A DNA stretch of 64,000 nt from positions 1 to 64,000 of the IMG/VR virus record IMGVR_UViG_3300036851_000098; one strand, written 5' to 3'. Within the stretch, counting starts at the first letter, position 1, and the number at the start of each line of letters is the position of its first letter. The stretch comes from a virus. Shown here in pieces: positions 6,900-30,417 of this stretch. The position numbers were made by a program, and so were the translations under genes. The notes under the pieces are model-generated. The model worked only from the letters and a program-made list of their open reading frames with translations, had not been told where the DNA came from and did not search any database.

Positions 6900-7399
6900 T
6901 CGACGGTCGACCGGACGGAGTAACCATGATTGCCAGTTGGTGCGTTCCTTTCGTTCTCCGCGAGTCTCATACATTGAACGTTCTTCAAAGCCGTCTACAC
7001 GGTTTAGACCACTGGTTTCGTGTCTGGCAGAACGGACAGATGTTGGCAAACATGGAAATCGACGTAGATCTTGAAGTCCTTGCCCTGTACGCGTTATTTC
7101 ACGACTCGATGCGTATGAACGAAGGTTCAGATCCGAGTCATGGAATGCGCGGCTTCAGGTTGTGGGAACGTGTCAACCAGCGCCAAGAAGTCGAAGACCT
7201 TCTCAGCGAACGACAGCGAGAGTTATTTTTCGAGGTATGTACTCAACATAGTGATGGGCTTCGAAGTACTGATCCAACTATCGCCGCTTGCTGGGATGCC
7301 GATCGACTGGATCTCCATCGCAAAGGGATCTGGCCGGATGCTCGTTTCATGAGCACCCAAGCAGGACTAAGTCTTGTCATGACTCGGATTACCTCATAA
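6896..7399 (+). CDS. HD-domain phosphohydrolase
   Basis: HGLDHW...ALFHDS...HG...CWDADRLDL HD motif set. Confidence 0.8.
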   Translation: MIDGRPDGVTMIASWCVPFVLRESHTLNVLQSRLHGLDHWFRVWQNGQMLANMEIDVDLEVLALYALFHDSMRMNEGSDPSHGMRGFRLWERVNQRQEVEDLLSERQRELFFEVCTQHSDGLRSTDPTIAACWDADRLDLHRKGIWPDARFMSTQAGLSLVMTRITS

Positions 7400-19347: not shown

Positions 19348-22300
19348 GTGGATTTCTATCAGATCCTTGCACGCGAAACAAAGGACAAGAACGATCCGAG
19401 GTTGGAGTTGTACCCTGACTTCGTGGTCGGGCGCTCTGAGGATCTGATGGTCCAAGGCGGTAAGTTCTACGCCATTTGGGATGAAGAGAAGGGCCTATGG
19501 TCTCGCGATGAATATGACGTTCAGCGTCTTGTCGATGAGGATCTTCGGCAAACGAGAGAGCGGTTGGAACAGGATACAGGCCAGAAGTACACCGTGAAGT
19601 TCATGCGGTCATTCCACTCGAACATCTGGGCGCAGTTCCGGAAGTTCATGGCACATATTTCGGATAACAGCAAGCCCTTGGACCGAAAGTTGGTGTTCGC
19701 CAACACGGAAGTGAAGAAGAAGGACTACGCTAGCAAGAAGCTTCCCTATGACATCGGTGAAGGTGATATTTCCGCATGGGAAGAACTGACATCAACTCTG
19801 TATTCTCCAGACGAACGAGCGAAGATCGAGTGGGCGATCGGGTCAATTGTTGCCGGGGATTCAAAGAAGATCCAGAAGTTCCTGGTGTTCTACGGACCTC
19901 CAGGTACCGGGAAGTCAACGATCTTAAATATCATTCAGCAACTGTTCGAGGGGTATACGACTTCCTTCGATGGGAAGGCCCTTGGGTCATCTAGCTCTCA
20001 GTTCGCTACTGAGGCATTCAAATATAACCCTCTGGTGGCTATTCAGCATGACGGCGATCTTAGTCGTATCGAGGACAATGCGCGGCTGAACTCTATTGTC
20101 GCTCACGAAGAAATGACGATGAACGAGAAGTATAAGCCTTCATATTCTTCAAGAATCGATGCCATGCTGTTCCTCGGATCGAATCAGCCGGTGAGAATCT
20201 CCGATGCCAAGTCGGGTATTATTCGTCGACTGATCGATATTCATCCGACAGGAATCAAGTTCGCGCCAAAGCGCTACCAAACGCTTATGACTCAGATCGG
20301 CTTTGAGCTTGGCGCCATAGCGCATCATTGTCATCAAGTATATTTGACGATGGGCAAGAACTTCTATAACGGTTATCGCCCGTTGGAGATGATGTTGCAG
20401 ACCGATGTCTTCTTCAACTTCATCGAAGCTTACTTCGATGTGTTCAAGAAGCAGAATTACACCACACTCAAGCAGGCTTACACGATGTATCGTGAGTACT
20501 GCGCTGAGAGCGGAATCGAGCGGCCCATGCCTCAGTACAAGATGCGTGAGGAACTGCGCAACTACTTTGATGAGTTCAAGGATAGAGGTGAGATCGATGG
20601 GGAAGCAGTTCGAAGCCTATATATGGGCTTCACGGCCGAGAAGTTCAAGACTCCTACGGATGATCCGACGCAGTTTTCGCTCGTCCTTGAAGAGAAGACG
20701 TCTCTGCTGGATGAGCTCCTCGCACGATTTCCCGCTCAGCTAGCAAACGCTGATGGGATGCCTACCAAACGGTGGGCAAATGTGACGACAACTCTTTCAG
20801 ATATTGATTCGCGAAAAATTCACTACGTGAAAGTTCCTGAAAAACACGTGGTTATCGACTTCGATCTGAAGGACCAAAATGGCCATAAAGCTCTGGAAAG
20901 AAACCTGGAAGCGGCATCTCACTGGCCTGCTACTTATGCAGAGATCAGCAAGTCCGGCTCAGGAATCCATCTTCATTACAACTACACCGGAGGCGATGTC
21001 TCAGATCTCAGGCGTGATTACGCTGATGGGATCGAAGTTAAGGTTTATACTGGTGACGCCTCTCTCCGTCGACGACTTACTCGCTGTAATAACGTGGGAG
21101 TGGCCGAAATCTCCAGCGGGCTTCCGCTAAAAGACAAGAGGGAGCCGATGCTAAAGACAAAAACTATGCAGAGCGAACAAGGGCTCCGAGATTTGATTCA
21201 GCGGAATCTTCGTAAGGAGATTCATCCTGGAACCAAGCCTTCGGTGGACTTCATCAAGAAGGTCCTCGATGATGCTTACGAGTCAGGTATTCAGTATGAC
21301 GTGACCGATCTTCGTAGTCGTATTGTCGCTTTCGCCAACAACTCCTCCAATCAGGCGCAGGCGTGTCTGAAGACGGTCAACGAGATGCGATGGAAGTCAG
21401 AAGAAGCTGGAGAAACCAAGGAGGAAGCCTTCACTTCCGACCATAATGTTGACGTAAAAGACGATCGCATTGCGTTCTTCGACGTAGAAGTCTATGAGAA
21501 CCTCTTCGTGATCTGCTGGAAATTCCAGGGATCTGATGAAGTGGTGAAGATGGTCAACCCAAAGGCCCATGAGGTCGCGGAGTTGTTCAGTCTCAAGCTG
21601 GTTGGTTTCTACAACCGTCGATACGACAATCATATTCTTTACGCAGCAGCTATGGGAGCCAGTAACGCGGAGCTCTTCACGTTGTCAAAGAAGTTGGTTA
21701 TTGATAACAACCGATCAGTGTCGTTTGCTCAGGCGTACAATCTCTCATACGCTGATATTTGGGAGTTCTCGTCTGAGAAGAAGTCTCTGAAGAAGTTCGA
21801 GATTGACCTGGGGATCCTGCACATGGAGCTGGATATTCCTTGGGATCAGCCTGTTGACGAGAAGGATTGGCCCAGAGTTGTGGCATACTGTGAAAACGAC
21901 GTGCGCGCAACCGAAGCCGTGTTTGAGGATCGTAAGGGGGACTTCACAGCGCGGCTAATTCTAGCTGAGTTGTCTGGTTTGACCCCCAACGATACTACGC
22001 AAAACCATACCGCCAAGATCATATTTGGCGACAAGGTGAAGACAGCCAACAAAGACTTCGTCTACACCGATCTCTCGAAGGAGTTCCCCGGGTACAAGTT
22101 CGAGCTCGGAAAGAGCTATTACAAGGGGGAAGAGCCTGGCGAAGGTGGCTATGTGTATGCCGAGCCGGGTATGTATTCAAATGTCGCCGTCTTGGATGTT
22201 GCATCGATGCATCCGATGTCGATCATCAAGCTGAACGCATTCGGTCCTTATACGCAGAAGTTCGAAGACTTGATCAAAGCTCGCATCGCGATCAAACGTA

Positions 22301-23205
22301 AAGATTTTGAGGCTGCCTCCTACATGATGGATGGGCGCCTGAAGCCGTTCCTCCTAAACGAGGACGAAAGCTATGACGTAGAGGGAGCTGACAAGCTTGC
22401 CTACGCACTCAAGATCGTGATCAATATTGTTTACGGTCTCACTTCTGCCAAGTTCGATAATCCGTTCCGCGATATTCGCAACGTCGACAACATCGTCGCC
22501 AAACGCGGCGCCTTATTCATGATCGATCTCAAGCACGCCTTGCAAGAGAAGGGCGTCTCGGTTGTGCACATCAAGACGGACTCTGTCAAGATCCCGGATA
22601 CTACTCCGGATATCATCAAATTTGTCACAGAGTTCGGTGCCAAGTACGGGTATGACTTCGAGCACGAAGAGACATATGACCGATTCTGCCTGGTCAACGA
22701 TGCGGTCTACGTGGCTGGGATTCAGGCAGTGCCTTGGGAAGAGAACTTCCCGAAGTATAAGTGGACTGCTGTTGGTGCACAGTTCCAGCACCCTTACGTC
22801 TTCAAGACGTTGTTCTCAGAAGAAGATATTTCGTTTGAGGATTATCGAGAGGGTCGTTCTGTCGTCAAGGGAGCGATGTATCTCGATAAAGCGGAAATGG
22901 AAGAGCCTGACTACACCAAGATGCGCCATATTGGCAAGACTGGCCTGTTCGTTCCAGTTCTGTCTGGTGGCGGAAAGCTTTACCGCGTCAACAAAGATAC
23001 AGATGCCGAAGGTCACGATATCGAAAAATACTACGCGGTGAGCGGTACTAAGGGCCATCTCTGGATGGATGCCGATGAAGCAAGCGAAGCCAACGAGAAG
23101 GGCAATCTCGAAATTGACATGTCATATTTCGAGAAATTGAAAGATGACGCCGTCAAGACGATCGAGAAGTTCGGTAACTTCGACGAATTCATAGGGAGGA
23201 AGTGA
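19348..23205 (+). CDS. Fused SF3 helicase / primase / 3'-5' exonuclease / family B-like DNA polymerase
   Basis: GPPGTGKST Walker A; VIDFD..SKSGSGIHLHY prim-pol motifs; FFDVE and YN..YD exonuclease motifs; DVASMHP, K..IN..YG and HIKTDS polymerase motifs. Confidence 0.85.
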   Translation: MDFYQILARETKDKNDPRLELYPDFVVGRSEDLMVQGGKFYAIWDEEKGLWSRDEYDVQRLVDEDLRQTRERLEQDTGQKYTVKFMRSFHSNIWAQFRKFMAHISDNSKPLDRKLVFANTEVKKKDYASKKLPYDIGEGDISAWEELTSTLYSPDERAKIEWAIGSIVAGDSKKIQKFLVFYGPPGTGKSTILNIIQQLFEGYTTSFDGKALGSSSSQFATEAFKYNPLVAIQHDGDLSRIEDNARLNSIVAHEEMTMNEKYKPSYSSRIDAMLFLGSNQPVRISDAKSGIIRRLIDIHPTGIKFAPKRYQTLMTQIGFELGAIAHHCHQVYLTMGKNFYNGYRPLEMMLQTDVFFNFIEAYFDVFKKQNYTTLKQAYTMYREYCAESGIERPMPQYKMREELRNYFDEFKDRGEIDGEAVRSLYMGFTAEKFKTPTDDPTQFSLVLEEKTSLLDELLARFPAQLANADGMPTKRWANVTTTLSDIDSRKIHYVKVPEKHVVIDFDLKDQNGHKALERNLEAASHWPATYAEISKSGSGIHLHYNYTGGDVSDLRRDYADGIEVKVYTGDASLRRRLTRCNNVGVAEISSGLPLKDKREPMLKTKTMQSEQGLRDLIQRNLRKEIHPGTKPSVDFIKKVLDDAYESGIQYDVTDLRSRIVAFANNSSNQAQACLKTVNEMRWKSEEAGETKEEAFTSDHNVDVKDDRIAFFDVEVYENLFVICWKFQGSDEVVKMVNPKAHEVAELFSLKLVGFYNRRYDNHILYAAAMGASNAELFTLSKKLVIDNNRSVSFAQAYNLSYADIWEFSSEKKSLKKFEIDLGILHMELDIPWDQPVDEKDWPRVVAYCENDVRATEAVFEDRKGDFTARLILAELSGLTPNDTTQNHTAKIIFGDKVKTANKDFVYTDLSKEFPGYKFELGKSYYKGEEPGEGGYVYAEPGMYSNVAVLDVASMHPMSIIKLNAFGPYTQKFEDLIKARIAIKRKDFEAASYMMDGRLKPFLLNEDESYDVEGADKLAYALKIVINIVYGLTSAKFDNPFRDIRNVDNIVAKRGALFMIDLKHALQEKGVSVVHIKTDSVKIPDTTPDIIKFVTEFGAKYGYDFEHEETYDRFCLVNDAVYVAGIQAVPWEENFPKYKWTAVGAQFQHPYVFKTLFSEEDISFEDYREGRSVVKGAMYLDKAEMEEPDYTKMRHIGKTGLFVPVLSGGGKLYRVNKDTDAEGHDIEKYYAVSGTKGHLWMDADEASEANEKGNLEIDMSYFEKLKDDAVKTIEKFGNFDEFIGRK

Positions 23206-26086: not shown

Positions 26087-26437
26087 ATGTCGACAACACC
26101 GGATATTTTCGGGGATAACCGGCAAGACATCGCACCGCCGGAGCGTTCGCTCAAGCAACGTATGGAGGCGTTGCATACCGCCAATCGAATCCGTTCCGCA
26201 CGAGCGAAGTTGAAGCTCGATCTGAAAGCGGGACGTGAGCGCGTTCACGATATTCTTCTGGAACCGCCGGAGTATATCGAGACGATGAAGGCTTTCGACC
26301 TATTGTTGGCCACACCGAAGTACGGACGAGTCAAGACAAATCGACTCTTGGCTCAGTGCCGGATGTCTCCCTCGAAGACGATCGGTGGAATGAGCGAACG
26401 TCAGCGGAACGAACTCGTCTCAATGCTGAGACGATAG
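26087..26437 (+). CDS. mihF: Actinobacterial integration host factor (mIHF/sIHF)
   Basis: QR..AL..AN..R..RAKLK.DLKAG...MK..DLL...PKYG.VK...LL....S.SK.IGG.SERQR. Confidence 0.85.
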   Translation: MSTTPDIFGDNRQDIAPPERSLKQRMEALHTANRIRSARAKLKLDLKAGRERVHDILLEPPEYIETMKAFDLLLATPKYGRVKTNRLLAQCRMSPSKTIGGMSERQRNELVSMLRR

Positions 26438-26458
26438 CAGCTATATCTGGTCGACAGC

Positions 26459-26940
26459 CGGTGACGATCTAGGGAATAGGTAGCCACGCATTCAAATAAG
26501 TCGTGAGGGTAGAACAATACGCATCGCTTTAACGGATAAGTGATCTTAAGTTATTGCGACTCGTGTCCCTCGTTGTGTAAATCCTATTAGGGCTGTGGAA
26601 GCGGGTAGATCACAAAACCCCCTTCGCCCTAGATGACCGATAAAATAGAGGTCCGGGGGTGATAAACCACACCGGTATAAGTCGATTTCTGAGGTCGATC
26701 GAAAGGGTGAGTCCTAGGCCACCTTACCTCTATAAACGTGATGGGACACGCCCATCGCCGTAAGTCCTGCAACGCGTGGAGGCAAATGCCTGCGAAGCTC
26801 GTGTCAGTCAGGTAAATCGGCAACACGTGAGGTTCGCCGCTCACGTCAATAGAGCACCCGTTGTGGTGGACTCGAGTTAAACCCGGGGTAGTGACCTGGT
26901 ACCAGGGGGAGATCGGCGCCCCCTGGTCATTACATATTCC
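26459..26940 (+). ncRNA. Large structured non-coding region
   Basis: ATCTAGGG/CCCTAGAT, AATAGG/CCTATT, ATAGAGG/CCTCTAT, GATGGG/CCCATC, ACGTGAG/CTCACGT, ACCAGGGGG/CCCCCTGGT. Confidence 0.6.
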
Positions 26941-26961
26941 CCCCGGAAAGGAGGTGACAGC

Positions 26962-27141
26962 ATGGGGAGAAAGTGGGCAAAGGTTGGTTTGACTTCCGAC
27001 GGAACGCTGTACATCTCTGAGGAAGTTCGTCCGGGAGATGCGATGCGTCTCGAGAAGGCGATGACCAACCCCGAGAAGAAGGAACAGCTCGAGAAGCGTA
27101 TGGACGATCTGATCGTCGCTCTCGGGGCGAAGTGGGGATAA
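26962..27141 (+). CDS. 59-aa hypothetical protein
   Basis: Strong RBS AAAGGAGGTG. Confidence 0.65.
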   Translation: MGRKWAKVGLTSDGTLYISEEVRPGDAMRLEKAMTNPEKKEQLEKRMDDLIVALGAKWG

Positions 27142-27341
27142 GTTAGAAGTTGGGAGTCCTAGCGTACGCCTATTGGCTGTAACCGCGTATTCTGGCGGCA
27201 GAACAGTAGCTTTGCGTGTAAAGAGGACGAAGTTGGATTGGGGAGCGCCGGAGAGTGTCGCTCGAGGCACAGAAGGTCGGGAAACTCCAACATATGTACA
27301 ACACAATTCCTGGGTGGATACCTAGGAGAAAGGATGGGCGG

Positions 27342-27725
27342 ATGCTCACCCGAATCAGGATCGAAGTAGAAGGCGCCGATTCGGCGGCCGCATGCGAGGA
27401 AGAGCTTTCCAAGTACGAACACGCCATGCAAGTAACCGAGGCGCAACGCTATGGCATCGGCTACGAATACATCGAAACCGAGAAAGGAATAAATCAGTCC
27501 TCAGCCACTCATCGCCCATGGGATTTCTCGGTGGAAACCCGAGACTTCTATAACTCGCAACTCGGACGTGAGGTGACCGATGAGGTCATCGAATACGATG
27601 CGTCTCTGCCTGGCTACCGAGGTCGGCGAGTGGTGCAGTTCAAGCGTATGGACACGCGTGCCTACACATACGGCCGAGCGGATCAGCATGAGGTCGGAGA
27701 GGCGGCTCGTCAGAGCCTTGCTTAA
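27342..27725 (+). CDS. Hypothetical protein
   Basis: ATG 27342 after GAAAGGA. Confidence 0.6.
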   Translation: MLTRIRIEVEGADSAAACEEELSKYEHAMQVTEAQRYGIGYEYIETEKGINQSSATHRPWDFSVETRDFYNSQLGREVTDEVIEYDASLPGYRGRRVVQFKRMDTRAYTYGRADQHEVGEAARQSLA

Positions 27726-27739
27726 TAAGTAATTCAGTA

Positions 27740-28320
27740 GATCGGGAGATCGGGCCCCTTTTGATCGGGGGTGGATAATACCGGCTGACGCGGGATGATG
27801 GAGATCATATCCGAAAGGATAAGGTCGTTGGGACGCCCGCATTACTTTGGGTCAACCTGGGCTCAAGGGTCGACGAGAGTCGATTGGCTCACTCCGTACG
27901 TTATGTCGGAGGACAACAGAGGCCAATGGCGGACTACGCCTGTTCGAAAGCGAGGCGTCGGTTTGAGAGGGCCGAAGACGTTTGAATTCCTCTCTTGTGT
28001 GGTCAAGACCCGATAAGAAGCTTGGTCATAAGGACTAAAAGGCAGACTAAGCTCGCCGCACAAAGTAGGCCTGCTCTACTATTTCAGGAAGTCCGACTCT
28101 AGTGAGAATACCTATGGGCCCTCCTAGATAGGCGCTGCGTCAGAGGTCAGACGTAGAGGGATGGAATAGAACCCCACCTCTTATCCAACGATGGGAGACG
28201 TTAGGAATCGGAGTGAGCCGATCCTGAACGCGAACCTATTGGCTGCGGCCATGGAAGAAGGATTCCACTTTGTATAAGAGTTTCTCTCTGAAAGACCGGT
28301 CTATTCGCGATCCCATATTT
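27740..28320 (+). ncRNA. Large structured non-coding region with GNRA tetraloops
   Basis: TATCC-GAAA-GGATA, TCGAC-GAGA-GTCGA, CGGACT/AGTCCG, AGCTTGGTC/GACTAAGCT, ATGGGA/TCCCAT. Confidence 0.6.
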
Positions 28321-28345
28321 AGAGACCCCAATTTAAAGGAACATC

Positions 28346-28441
28346 ATGAAGCTTTTCTTCGTAATTCTTCTAGCAATCCTCGTCGCATTTGGTGGACTGC
28401 TGTGGTTCCTTCGTTGGGCCGCGCAGGATATCGACCAGTGA
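28346..28441 (+). CDS. 31-aa membrane peptide
   Basis: Leader GAGACCCCAATTTAAAGGA; MKLFFVILLAILVAFGGLLWFLRW. Confidence 0.55.
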   Translation: MKLFFVILLAILVAFGGLLWFLRWAAQDIDQ

Positions 28442-28857
28442 GCACTAACCGTATCCCAGTTTTGCTCCTTCCTGGGGTAAATCACACCGAAGATCTTGTG
28501 GGATTCGGCGAACTCACAGATGACGGAAAGCTGATCATCACCGTAGAGCACGACCGAGGATATTCGAGAACTCTATCTGAGTCTCGGGTTTACTCTACAA
28601 GACGGCTACCGAACGAGAAGTATATGATGAAGTGGTTGCAAAGGTTTCAACGCAGTAAAGAAGAACGTGTTCTCAAAGCAATTCGAAACAATGTCCGATT
28701 TACTTTAGAGATCAGCAAGGAAGCGCGCATTGGTATTAGTTCCTTATATCCCATTCTAGCCCGTTTAGAGAATGACGGAGTCATCGACAGCGCTTGGGGT
28801 TGGGACGACAATATCAAACGGCGAGTCTATTACATCAAGGAAGAAAATCATGAGTAA
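28438..28857 (+). CDS. Protein with C-terminal PadR-like winged HTH
   Basis: EISKEARIG.SSLYPIL.RLE.DG.I...W....RRVYYI; GTGA coupling. Confidence 0.65.
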   Translation: MSTNRIPVLLLPGVNHTEDLVGFGELTDDGKLIITVEHDRGYSRTLSESRVYSTRRLPNEKYMMKWLQRFQRSKEERVLKAIRNNVRFTLEISKEARIGISSLYPILARLENDGVIDSAWGWDDNIKRRVYYIKEENHE

Positions 28858-29104
28858 TTGGCCAACGTTGTCAACTACCTGGCCGATCATCTGGGCGGTA
28901 AAGCGGAATGACGGGGAGCCAGGTCTCGTTATCTGTCGGGCTAAGGACAGAGAAGGAGCCAAGCGGATTGCAGCAAAGCGACTACTTGGTAATCCGGATC
29001 AGTTCATTGTCGAACCCCTCTCTCGAGAAGGAGAGGCGGTCGTATTTGATCTCGAAATTGAAGGGAAGAAGAATGACACGCGTCTACGAGGTTTTCGTGG
29101 TTAG
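28850..29104 (+). CDS. Hypothetical protein
   Basis: ATG 28850 after AAGGAAG. Confidence 0.5.
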   Translation: MSNWPTLSTTWPIIWAVKRNDGEPGLVICRAKDREGAKRIAAKRLLGNPDQFIVEPLSREGEAVVFDLEIEGKKNDTRLRGFRG

Positions 29105-29171
29105 TGGTTCCACTCGGAACCTACAGGCTAAGACTAGCCTGGTCTAACCACCAACTAGAAGGAGGCCAGTA

Positions 29172-29324
29172 ATGGCCGAGGGCGCGAACTCCATCGTCGA
29201 CCTCAAGAAGTACTTGTCGACACCGGAGAACCCGGTGACAATGGAAGAGCTCAAGGAGTTTTGGGAGTCCTGCTCCGACGAGGAGAAGGAGCAGTTCAAG
29301 AACACGGAGCTGCCGAAAAGCTAG
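29172..29324 (+). CDS. 50-aa acidic protein
   Basis: RBS AAGGAGG; PVTMEELKEFWESCSDEEKEQFK. Confidence 0.65.
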   Translation: MAEGANSIVDLKKYLSTPENPVTMEELKEFWESCSDEEKEQFKNTELPKS

Positions 29325-29335
29325 TGTGTTAATTT

Positions 29336-29925
29336 GGTTGATAATGATGCCTGGGAGAAGAACGGGATTCATTATCAACCTTGGGTGAGAGTGAAGCTAA
29401 ACGTCGATCTGTGTATGCGCCTGCCATCATCACTGGGTATATACTAGGGAGTTTGGTGGAACGTTAGGACTACATAGGAACGCGCAATATGTCCTTCTCA
29501 CCCTAAATAATCGGGGAGCCTCACCGGTGCACCGGGAGAAGGAGGCGATGCTGAATAGGGGAGTGGGCTAATGATCCACGGGTGACTTCAGCAAAAGTAG
29601 TGCTTGTCAGACCCCTGGAGGTCGTGAAACACCTCGGGGCAAGTGGCTGATGAGATCTGGCAGCGTACCGGTATTTAAGCCATCTCCCGGATGCGTGGTC
29701 AGGGGGCAATGGGGTCTCACCGGGGGGTTGGTATGGATTGCGGATTCCTGATACTGACTCCCCGGCCCGCCTCAATAAGACTTATATTCAAATAATCAAT
29801 TGGAGGAATCATGAGCGATTGATCGGTAGGGCGTCGGAATCCGACCCCAATTAAATATCAACCAGGAACGGTAAAGAGAGTGGGGGTGTCTACGGCGAGA
29901 GGGTCGAGGCACCCCTGCATATTTC
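29336..29925 (+). ncRNA. Large structured non-coding region upstream of the transglycosylase
   Basis: GGTTGATAATGA/TCATTATCAACC, GGGTGAGA/TCTCACCC, CCGGGAGA/TCTCCCGG, 15-bp stem CCGGGGGGTTGGTAT/ATACTGACTCCCCGG. Confidence 0.6.
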
Positions 29926-29940
29926 AGAAAGGAGGCACGT

Positions 29941-30417
29941 ATGATGAGACCACTACTAGCAGTTCTAGCAACTCTCTGTACGTGTATCGGGCTGGCAGCG
30001 CCAGCTTCAGCGGATTGGCGATGGGCCGATCCAACTATCAAACCGGTCAAACCGAAGATATTTGATTGCAAGATAAAACTGTGCCAAAAGAAGGCCAAGC
30101 GTGTAGCAACCCTGAAATACAGGTTGAAGGTAGCGAAGTACTCGTATAAGAAGGAGCGCGAGTGGCAGCGCTGGATCAACCAGTATATTCCGGCCTGTAC
30201 TTGGTACGGCGAGAGTGGCCCAGGACCTGAATTTGCGGCCTGGCGATACGCCGTACCAAATACAATGGGATCATCTGCTCGAGGGAAATACCAGATGATG
30301 CCCGGAACTTACTCTTCAAGAGCCAGATATTTCGATTGGAGTCCGCTCGATCAAGAGATCGCGGGTCATCGAGAGTTCTGGGCAAACGGAACCTCCCCCT
30401 GGGAGGCTTGCCACTAG
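29941..30417 (+). CDS. Secreted Rpf/SceD-like lytic transglycosylase
   Basis: Signal peptide; ESG...A.GKYQ....TY...DQ..A......G.SPW..C. Confidence 0.7.
   Translation: MMRPLLAVLATLCTCIGLAAPASADWRWADPTIKPVKPKIFDCKIKLCQKKAKRVATLKYRLKVAKYSYKKEREWQRWINQYIPACTWYGESGPGPEFAAWRYAVPNTMGSSARGKYQMMPGTYSSRARYFDWSPLDQEIAGHREFWANGTSPWEACH

Follow-up and report, generated by a model that had tools for sequence, protein, structure and literature searches.

A gene-free gap in the genome of an uncultured soil phage reads as a string of separately conserved candidate RNA modules

The mycobacteriophages L5, D29 and StarStuff produce abundant non-coding RNAs of several hundred nucleotides that contain no conserved ORF (PMC5712189). 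RNA-seq located them at the genome end adjoining Pleft; they belong to early-gene transcription, are stable, have no known function and come from genome parts that are mosaic and rich in indels (PMC5712189). On a broader scale, a catalogue published in 2023 holds over 10,000 candidate structured RNAs from IMG/VR viruses (PMC10690425). The locus analysed here resembles those of L5, D29 and StarStuff in being an actinophage region of several hundred nucleotides without a conserved ORF, but its modules share no sequence with their RNAs, lie mid-genome and are known from covariation rather than from RNA-seq.

The phage and its gene-poor interval

The source record is a 79,866 bp IMG/VR phage genome rated complete by CheckV, and the window, i.e. 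the whole stretch of DNA that was analysed, consists of its bases 1-64000. The large terminase shares ~80% identity with the terminases of Streptomyces, Gordonia and Rhodococcus phages and the genes around the locus encode an mIHF-like protein and transglycosylase-like secreted proteins, which makes a soil actinobacterium the very probable host. No close relative of the phage was found among cultured phages. Local genes lie on the plus strand, most of them end to end; the region from the mIHF-like gene to the gene for a secreted 158-aa protein, by contrast, has four long gaps with six small genes interleaved.

19348-23205: gene for a D5-like primase-helicase
26087-26437: mIHF-like gene, before the gap region
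26438-26961, 27142-27341, 27726-28345 and 29325-29940: the four long gaps
28346-28441, plus strand: gene for a 31-aa peptide, on sequence reading a hydrophobic membrane peptide; the first gene after 27726-28345
28438-28857: PadR-like gene with a GTG start; 139-aa product with a PadR-type winged helix (Pfam match)
29941-30417: gene for the secreted 158-aa protein, after the gap region

The stop of the 31-aa gene overlaps the start of the PadR-like gene by GTGA. Neither the 31-aa peptide nor the 139-aa PadR-like protein has a homologue in the related contigs, and when the flanking 127-aa and PadR-like proteins were searched against IMG/VR, no close homologue emerged. Of the 158-aa family, at least 270 members come from metagenomes and none from cultured phages. 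Searches of one genome per prokaryotic species were empty both for the 158-aa protein and for the exact pattern of E3, one of the elements described below, so that nothing points to a host copy or to a prophage.

Secreted proteins are encoded downstream of this region in the window (29941-30417) and also in two of the related contigs, which are cited here by our own L numbers (L097 8334-8693, minus strand; L104 7020-7445), and they carry motifs (CTWYGESG and GKYQ; WCES...GGLQF) that typify transglycosylases or Rpf-like proteins. In four phages the secreted transglycosylase-like gene is preceded, at a distance of about 120-200 nt, by a conserved mini-ORF with a strong Shine-Dalgarno sequence (AGGAGG, ATG, two to four codons, stop), which reads MSD, MGR, MGRTR or MGWKH before the stop (window 29802-29822; L084 about 6990-7012; L104 6785-6813; L101 6470-6497); AAAGGGCCUACG comes after it in three of the four.

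Conserved elements in and around the 27726-28345 spacer

The sequence-only reading had taken 27740-28320 for a single, GNRA-rich non-coding RNA of about 580 nt, and had named translation of an ORF at 27795 under purifying selection as evidence that would count against it. As judged from its reading frames and from comparison with relatives, the spacer 27726-28345 is non-coding. TAA, TAG and TGA are each present in all six frames, which also rules out stop-codon recoding, and the one ORF of note is judged spurious:

27795-28016, plus strand: 73-aa ORF, its ATG inside the SL-II stem (see below) and without a Shine-Dalgarno sequence

This ORF has no Pfam or PHROG match and is not kept in relatives, since the matching frames in L084 and L090 run into unrelated peptides after a shared GRPH. 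When the non-coding sequence of the window was aligned with that of L104, mismatches were spread evenly over the codon positions (33/29/36) and gaps measured 7, 2, 2 and 1 nt; in the same comparison the neighbouring genes had gaps in multiples of three, and two of three control genes had a third-position excess. Thus, the proposed non-coding character is borne out, and an RNA reading is not contradicted by the 27795 ORF.

The spacer folds better than its shuffles on the plus strand (z -2.8), compared with z -1.2 on the minus strand. No family of Rfam 15 matched anywhere in the window at the gathering threshold, and at E <= 10 over 26300-30100 there were two noise matches only, both outside 27726-28345; the group I/II introns, RNase P, GOLLD, ROOL and OLE, with which the spacer was to be compared, are therefore absent from the matches even at this lenient level. 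ARAGORN found no tRNA or tmRNA in the window. Megablast and blastn searches of GenBank phages with the 3.5-kb region and the 76-nt E3 core returned no real match, and a sequencing-run search with the stretch listed no RNA run as containing the 27.7-28.3 kb sequence; it is contained in one DNA run, probably that of the source sample.

Relatives were gathered through neighbouring-protein anchors and a DNA pattern, and compared by blastn, nhmmer and covariance models. Close relatives are rare and related soil-phage contigs few, but the comparison divides the spacer into four parts, E5, VAR, E3 and TAIL, which comprise the following features.

27738-27845, plus strand: module E5, two hairpins, beginning at the invariant GAUCGGGAG
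about 27747-27786: SL-I, a two-tier hairpin, part of E5
27790-94 (GCGGG) / 27836-40 (CCCGC): SL-II of E5, with the conserved loop AYGAYGGAG..GGGAYG
27803-27828, plus strand: variable hairpin in the SL-II loop, bearing a GAAA tetraloop
27846-28057, plus strand: VAR, a window-specific filler of ~210 nt, with the GAGA hairpin 27870-83, the arm 27882-96 complementary to 28209-23 and the H0 hairpin 28020-28 / 28043-51
28061-28136, plus strand: module E3 core, 76 nt, made up of a pseudoknot, a single strand, H2 and AUAGGC
28064-68 / 28076-80: S1, 5-bp stem of the E3 H-type pseudoknot
28070-73 (loop bases) / 28085-88: S2, 4-bp stem of the same pseudoknot
between pseudoknot and H2: conserved single strand AAGUCCGA(C/A)UC
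28099-28127: H2, a variable hairpin, followed by AUAGGC at 28128-33
28133 to about 28320, plus strand: TAIL, a multi-helix domain of ~190 nt that extends E3 in the window and L104
28133-41 / 28150-58: TAIL helix H3
28178-88 / 28270-80: TAIL helix P8
28190-95 / 28235-40: TAIL helix P9
28199-211 / 28218-30: TAIL helix P10
28241-43 / 28248-50: TAIL helix P11
28091-96 / 28305-11: possible closing helix, invariant in the comparison

Module E5, which is ~80-105 nt long with stems of 6 + 6 bp and 5 bp, was matched by our model R1 in the window, L084, L087, L088, L090 and L097, while L101 retains SL-II alone. Its alignment cells are paired in 97.7% of cases, compared with 37-47% when the partners are slid; three pairs show changes on both sides and two G-U pairs are invariant. 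Against column shuffles, the alifold energy scores z -3.05 on the plus strand, compared with -0.9 on the minus strand; the z of single-sequence folds is near zero in several relatives. What follows SL-II is no more than a weak A/U-rich run.

For E3, model R2 matched six contigs, namely the window, L104, L090, L084, L120 and L133. The 38-nt block 28062-28099 is 100% identical in L084 and 92% identical in L090, whereas the flanking proteins are merely ~55-65% identical; an exact 20-mer of the conserved block, sought across IMG/VR, was matched in the contig of L084 only. In the six-sequence alignment 96.4% of cells are paired (slid controls 24-49%), and changes on both sides affect eight of the 14 pairs, in 22 cells, including two of five pairs in S1 and two of four in S2. 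As S2 was absent from the model that built the alignment, its covarying pairs are not a fitting artefact. The E3 core can thus be assigned, on comparative grounds, to the H-type pseudoknot class with covariation in both stems, though one divergent lineage (L120 and L133) supplies these changes, which may go back to single events. H2 covaries too, and pairs end to end in four sequences that differ in sequence and in length (29-58 nt).

TAIL is homologous to L104 6565-6775 at 58% identity, L104 being the sole contig that shares it, and brings E3 + TAIL to ~260 nt in all. RNAalifold found 60 pairs in E3 + TAIL, 14 of them compensatory (slid controls 0-2), with a column-shuffle z of -5.3, the structures being scored on the same sequences that yielded them. 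Alignment depth is six to seven sequences for E3 and E5 and two for TAIL.

Further readings were tried and discarded. Pairing of the pseudoknot-loop GCCU with AUAGGC fails as the loop changes in L120 and L133 and AGGC does not; a T-loop reading of GUCCGAAUC meets a C at the key U in L133 and a flanking C that is paired in H2; AGGAAGUCCG as an RNase P P4-like element found no supporting model match; and a 50-aa gene to which E3 might be tied occurs in five of the six carriers but also in 19 loci without E3.

VAR has no homologue in the related contigs by blastn or nhmmer, and the short string CTCCGTACG is its only sequence in common with L097. Its 15-nt inverted repeat (27882-27896 / 28209-28223, 93% complementary) joins it to the apex of TAIL P10; by our own estimate, ~0.01 such repeats are expected by chance in 620 nt. 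The repeat is not conserved, because the relatives lack VAR, and it could be an alternative pairing or the trace of an inverted duplication.

The common order among relatives is M, E5, E3, where M is a further conserved element described below. Individual contigs depart from it as follows.

L090: E5, then an 81-aa gene with a good ribosome-binding site, then E3; a homologue of the 81-aa gene lies elsewhere in L097
L104: M straight into E3, no E5
L097: module A (see below) straight into E5, no E3
L087 and L088: E5 ~160 nt ahead of the 158-aa gene, no E3
L120: an 85-aa gene, then E3, then a strong hairpin with a U-tract, resembling an intrinsic terminator
L133: E3 abuts the next ribosome-binding site

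Insertions fall between modules and not inside them, and each module is single-copy in the 79.9-kb genome. Across 50 whole related records, model R2 found E3 in three, all carriers already known, and not in the remaining 47, so E3 behaves as an accessory element. Judged from these arrangements, the modules are accessory, separable units. The domains of a single large RNA should be contiguous and inherited together; here E5 and E3 occur alone or are split by the 81-aa gene. Of the proposed ~580-nt RNA, then, conserved plus-strand structure of RNA type holds up, but the idea of one molecule does not, and the comparative evidence leads us to view the spacer as a string of separately conserved, folded plus-strand RNA modules instead of one 580-nt ribozyme or scaffold. 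As a side observation, L101 (6290-6345) and L090 (2705-2760) have in common a hairpin, GCUGGGAGGAC ... CCCCUCCUACUCC, that precedes E3; L101 differs in sequence where the E3 pseudoknot would sit, which is another sign of module exchange.

The neighbouring gaps fit the same picture. An RNA island with interleaved small ORFs had been proposed from the sequence of the window, and it holds because the blocks at 26.5, 27.2 and 29.5 kb carry conserved structured modules too, namely module A and the covarying M-core.

window 26438-26961: module A, conserved with L097, L104, L090 and L093; alifold column-shuffle z -4.3
window 27218-27302 and 29531-29606: M-core copies
L084 6462-6550 and 6893-6966: M-core copies
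L090 2258-2332, L104 6376-6462 and L087 139-226: one M-core copy each

The M-core, with these seven copies in five contigs, has the form AAGAGGRYGARG, P1 (GYYGRA / UYCRRC, 6 bp), U(A/U)GGGG, a variable hairpin, GGG(A/U)RAC and a tail like AUAUU. Three positions of P1 covary, each in another copy (GCUGGA, GUUGGA, GCCGGA, GCUGAA), and the element lies upstream of E5 or E3 or ahead of the transglycosylase-like gene. The terminal hairpin of module A covaries as well (CCAGGGGG / CCCCCUGG in the window); in L104, L090 and L097 it is followed by a U-tract, terminator-like, just before the ribosome-binding site, and in the window the U-tract has decayed.

Weighing the explanations

At the level of aligned sequences, the comparisons described above show that plus-strand helices, together with certain unpaired bases, are under purifying selection. 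They also show that the spacer is non-coding and holds at least two independently inherited elements with a conserved plus-strand fold, and we consider it on balance probable that these modules act at the RNA level.

Among the alternatives, the one that fares best, unlikely as we think it is, would make the modules cis-regulatory leaders, riboswitch-like or attenuators, with E3 as a ligand- or protein-sensing pseudoknot aptamer that controls the next gene through a terminator or a masked ribosome-binding site. The E3 core is indeed aptamer-like, a small H-type pseudoknot in which unpaired bases are invariant, the terminator after E3 in L120 and the ribosome-binding site after it in L133 resemble two alternative expression platforms, and module A has its terminator-like end just before a ribosome-binding site in L104, L090 and L097. 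However, a riboswitch is expected to place its aptamer ahead of related genes, and the genes downstream of the six E3 carriers are unrelated (the 31-aa peptide and PadR, a secreted 559-aa protein, transglycosylase-like proteins, small unknown genes); with neighbours that change from carrier to carrier, a gene-specific riboswitch is unlikely. In the window and L104, moreover, E3 is followed by a further ~200 nt of conserved structure before the next start codon is reached, a scan for intrinsic terminators (G+C-rich hairpin plus U-tract) found no plus-strand site in 27726-28345, and no riboswitch family of Rfam matches.

The conserved blocks might also act as DNA, as recombination linkers, protein-binding sites or single-strand initiation signals for the primase-helicase. 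Their positions coincide exactly with the borders between shuffled gene cassettes, the 38-nt block is fully identical between phages whose proteins are far less so, and a D5-like primase-helicase is encoded at 19348-23205. Yet the helices are kept by compensatory change while the sequence diverges fully, H2 being represented by four unrelated sequences, a pattern not expected of simple homology linkers or duplex binding sites. The conserved G-U pairs, C-A mismatches if read from the opposite strand, favour RNA, as does the plus-strand fold bias, and GC skew makes no turn at 27-28 kb. Since helices outlast total sequence replacement and G-U pairs are invariant, DNA-level roles are disfavoured and we regard them as very improbable.

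A very improbable explanation, in our view, is the one originally put forward, that 27740-28320 is one ~580-nt RNA with a ribozyme- or scaffold-like tertiary fold. Its best arguments are the fold of the whole stretch, which surpasses its shuffles on the plus strand, a 15-nt complement (27882-96 / 28209-23) that joins the two halves, and the two GNRA-capped hairpins, ATATCC-GAAA-GGATA at 27808-27823 and TCGAC-GAGA-GTCGA at 27870-27883, which are present as described and exceed chance: 2000 dinucleotide shuffles of the 620 nt gave a mean of 0.03 GNRA hairpins with at least five Watson-Crick pairs (P(>=2) 0.0005), and the whole 64-kb window has only seven. The GNRA loops are not conserved, however, and a GNRA-rich tertiary fold is therefore unsupported. 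The 27870 hairpin is specific to the window, and the 27808 hairpin lies in the variable SL-II insert, where L084 and L088 have a hairpin of other sequence with a non-GNRA loop and L087, L090 and L097 have no insert; comparison with these relatives suggests that the 27808 helix is real and its GNRA loop incidental.

The two long-range helices of that proposal fare no better. The 6-mers CGGACT (27930) and AGTCCG (28090), and ATGGGA (28191) and TCCCAT (28311), do exist, but their pairing is unsupported, as perfect 6-mer complements in the stretch are at chance level (61 observed vs 48 +/- 9 in shuffles), CGGACT lies in VAR and is absent from every relative, and TCCCAT is not conserved in L104. 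The comparative fold pairs GUCCGA (28091-96) with UCGCGAU (28305-11), not with CGGACT, and GAUGGG (28190-95) with CCUAUU (28235-40) in a helix that covaries. Added to this are the separation of E5 from E3 in relatives, with a gene between them in L090, the 210-nt middle without a homologue, and the lack of any Rfam ribozyme or large-RNA match.

Decayed gene remnants or functionless neutral spacer are scarcely credible as an account of the whole, since this reading is possible for VAR alone (27846-28057, no homologue, a spurious ORF only), whereas E5, E3 and TAIL covary and are more strongly conserved than the flanking genes.

Possible roles and comparison with known systems

We therefore return to separate modules that act as RNA, and ask how they might be made and used. 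A promoter-like repeat, TCGCG-N14-TATAAT-GAGACC, occurs at 16 sites over window positions 4429-44367, ahead of many small genes, and this early promoter-like motif has no copy from 15.1 to 32.2 kb. A promoter directly upstream of E5 was considered and rejected, six carriers having no -10-like element in common. With neither signal at hand, the modules are probably internal to long transcripts and would be co-transcribed with the surrounding plus-strand genes, each acting alone at the RNA level whatever gene adjoins it.

Our leading suggestion, made tentatively and at somewhat less than even confidence, is that E3 or its TAIL-extended form E3T, and probably E5, are excised from the polycistronic transcript, or outlast it, as stable RNAs and bind protein, in which case the conserved single-stranded faces would recognise a specific partner, either an RNA-binding factor of host or phage or else a nuclease. 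Next comes a gene-independent action in cis, a reasonable but again tentative possibility, in which the modules might form a barrier to decay by 5'-exonuclease or RNase E, a processing site or a put-type RNA polymerase antitermination signal. A bolder proposal, which we offer as speculative and hold to be rather doubtful, is that E3 + TAIL is the founder of a new class of phage structured ncRNA built on a compact pseudoknot, that 26.4-29.9 kb is a shuffling array of autonomous RNA cassettes (A, M-core, E5, E3T), and that the RNAs act in trans. Soil actinophages would then exchange such cassettes much as they do accessory genes, small ORFs would insert between the cassettes, and the RNAs might act on host or defence factors, e.g. 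as decoys for an RNA-binding protein or nuclease.

Should the modules act in trans or stabilise RNA in general, the accessory or anti-host gene islands of phages would gain an RNA layer, in the form of compact, testable parts such as the 76-nt E3 core. If they prove to be ordinary processing or terminator signals, the long gene-free gaps of these phages would still have been shown to consist of separable conserved units and not of one RNA. Across this family of abundant, uncultured soil phages, the modules behave as accessory units that are mobile.

Small H-type pseudoknots that bind a ligand or protein are familiar from the preQ1-I, SAM-II, fluoride and guanidine-III aptamers, the T4 gene 32 leader, ToxI repeats and phage pseudo-ToxI. 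E3 is like them in having a ~25-nt pseudoknot of 5 bp + 4 bp with short loops and invariant unpaired bases. Unlike the H-type aptamers, it has no Rfam match and no consistent downstream gene, and unlike ToxI it has no tandem repeats, nor was a host copy to mimic found in one genome per prokaryotic species. The E3 pseudoknot motif is thus new relative to Rfam. GOLLD and ROOL differ in size, E3 + TAIL at ~260 nt being well under their 500-800 nt, and their models do not match.

T7 RNase III sites and HK022 put RNAs are conserved intergenic hairpins on the coding strand that act on whatever RNA adjoins them, put being a two-hairpin element of ~70 nt with a promoter directly upstream. E5 resembles put in being a two-hairpin element, but it lacks a promoter directly upstream, and its stems (6 + 6 bp, 5 bp) are shorter than those of typical RNase III substrates. 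Non-coding RNAs of actinophages are otherwise known mostly as unexplained RNA-seq peaks; here they take the form of sequence-defined candidate modules that are supported by covariation.
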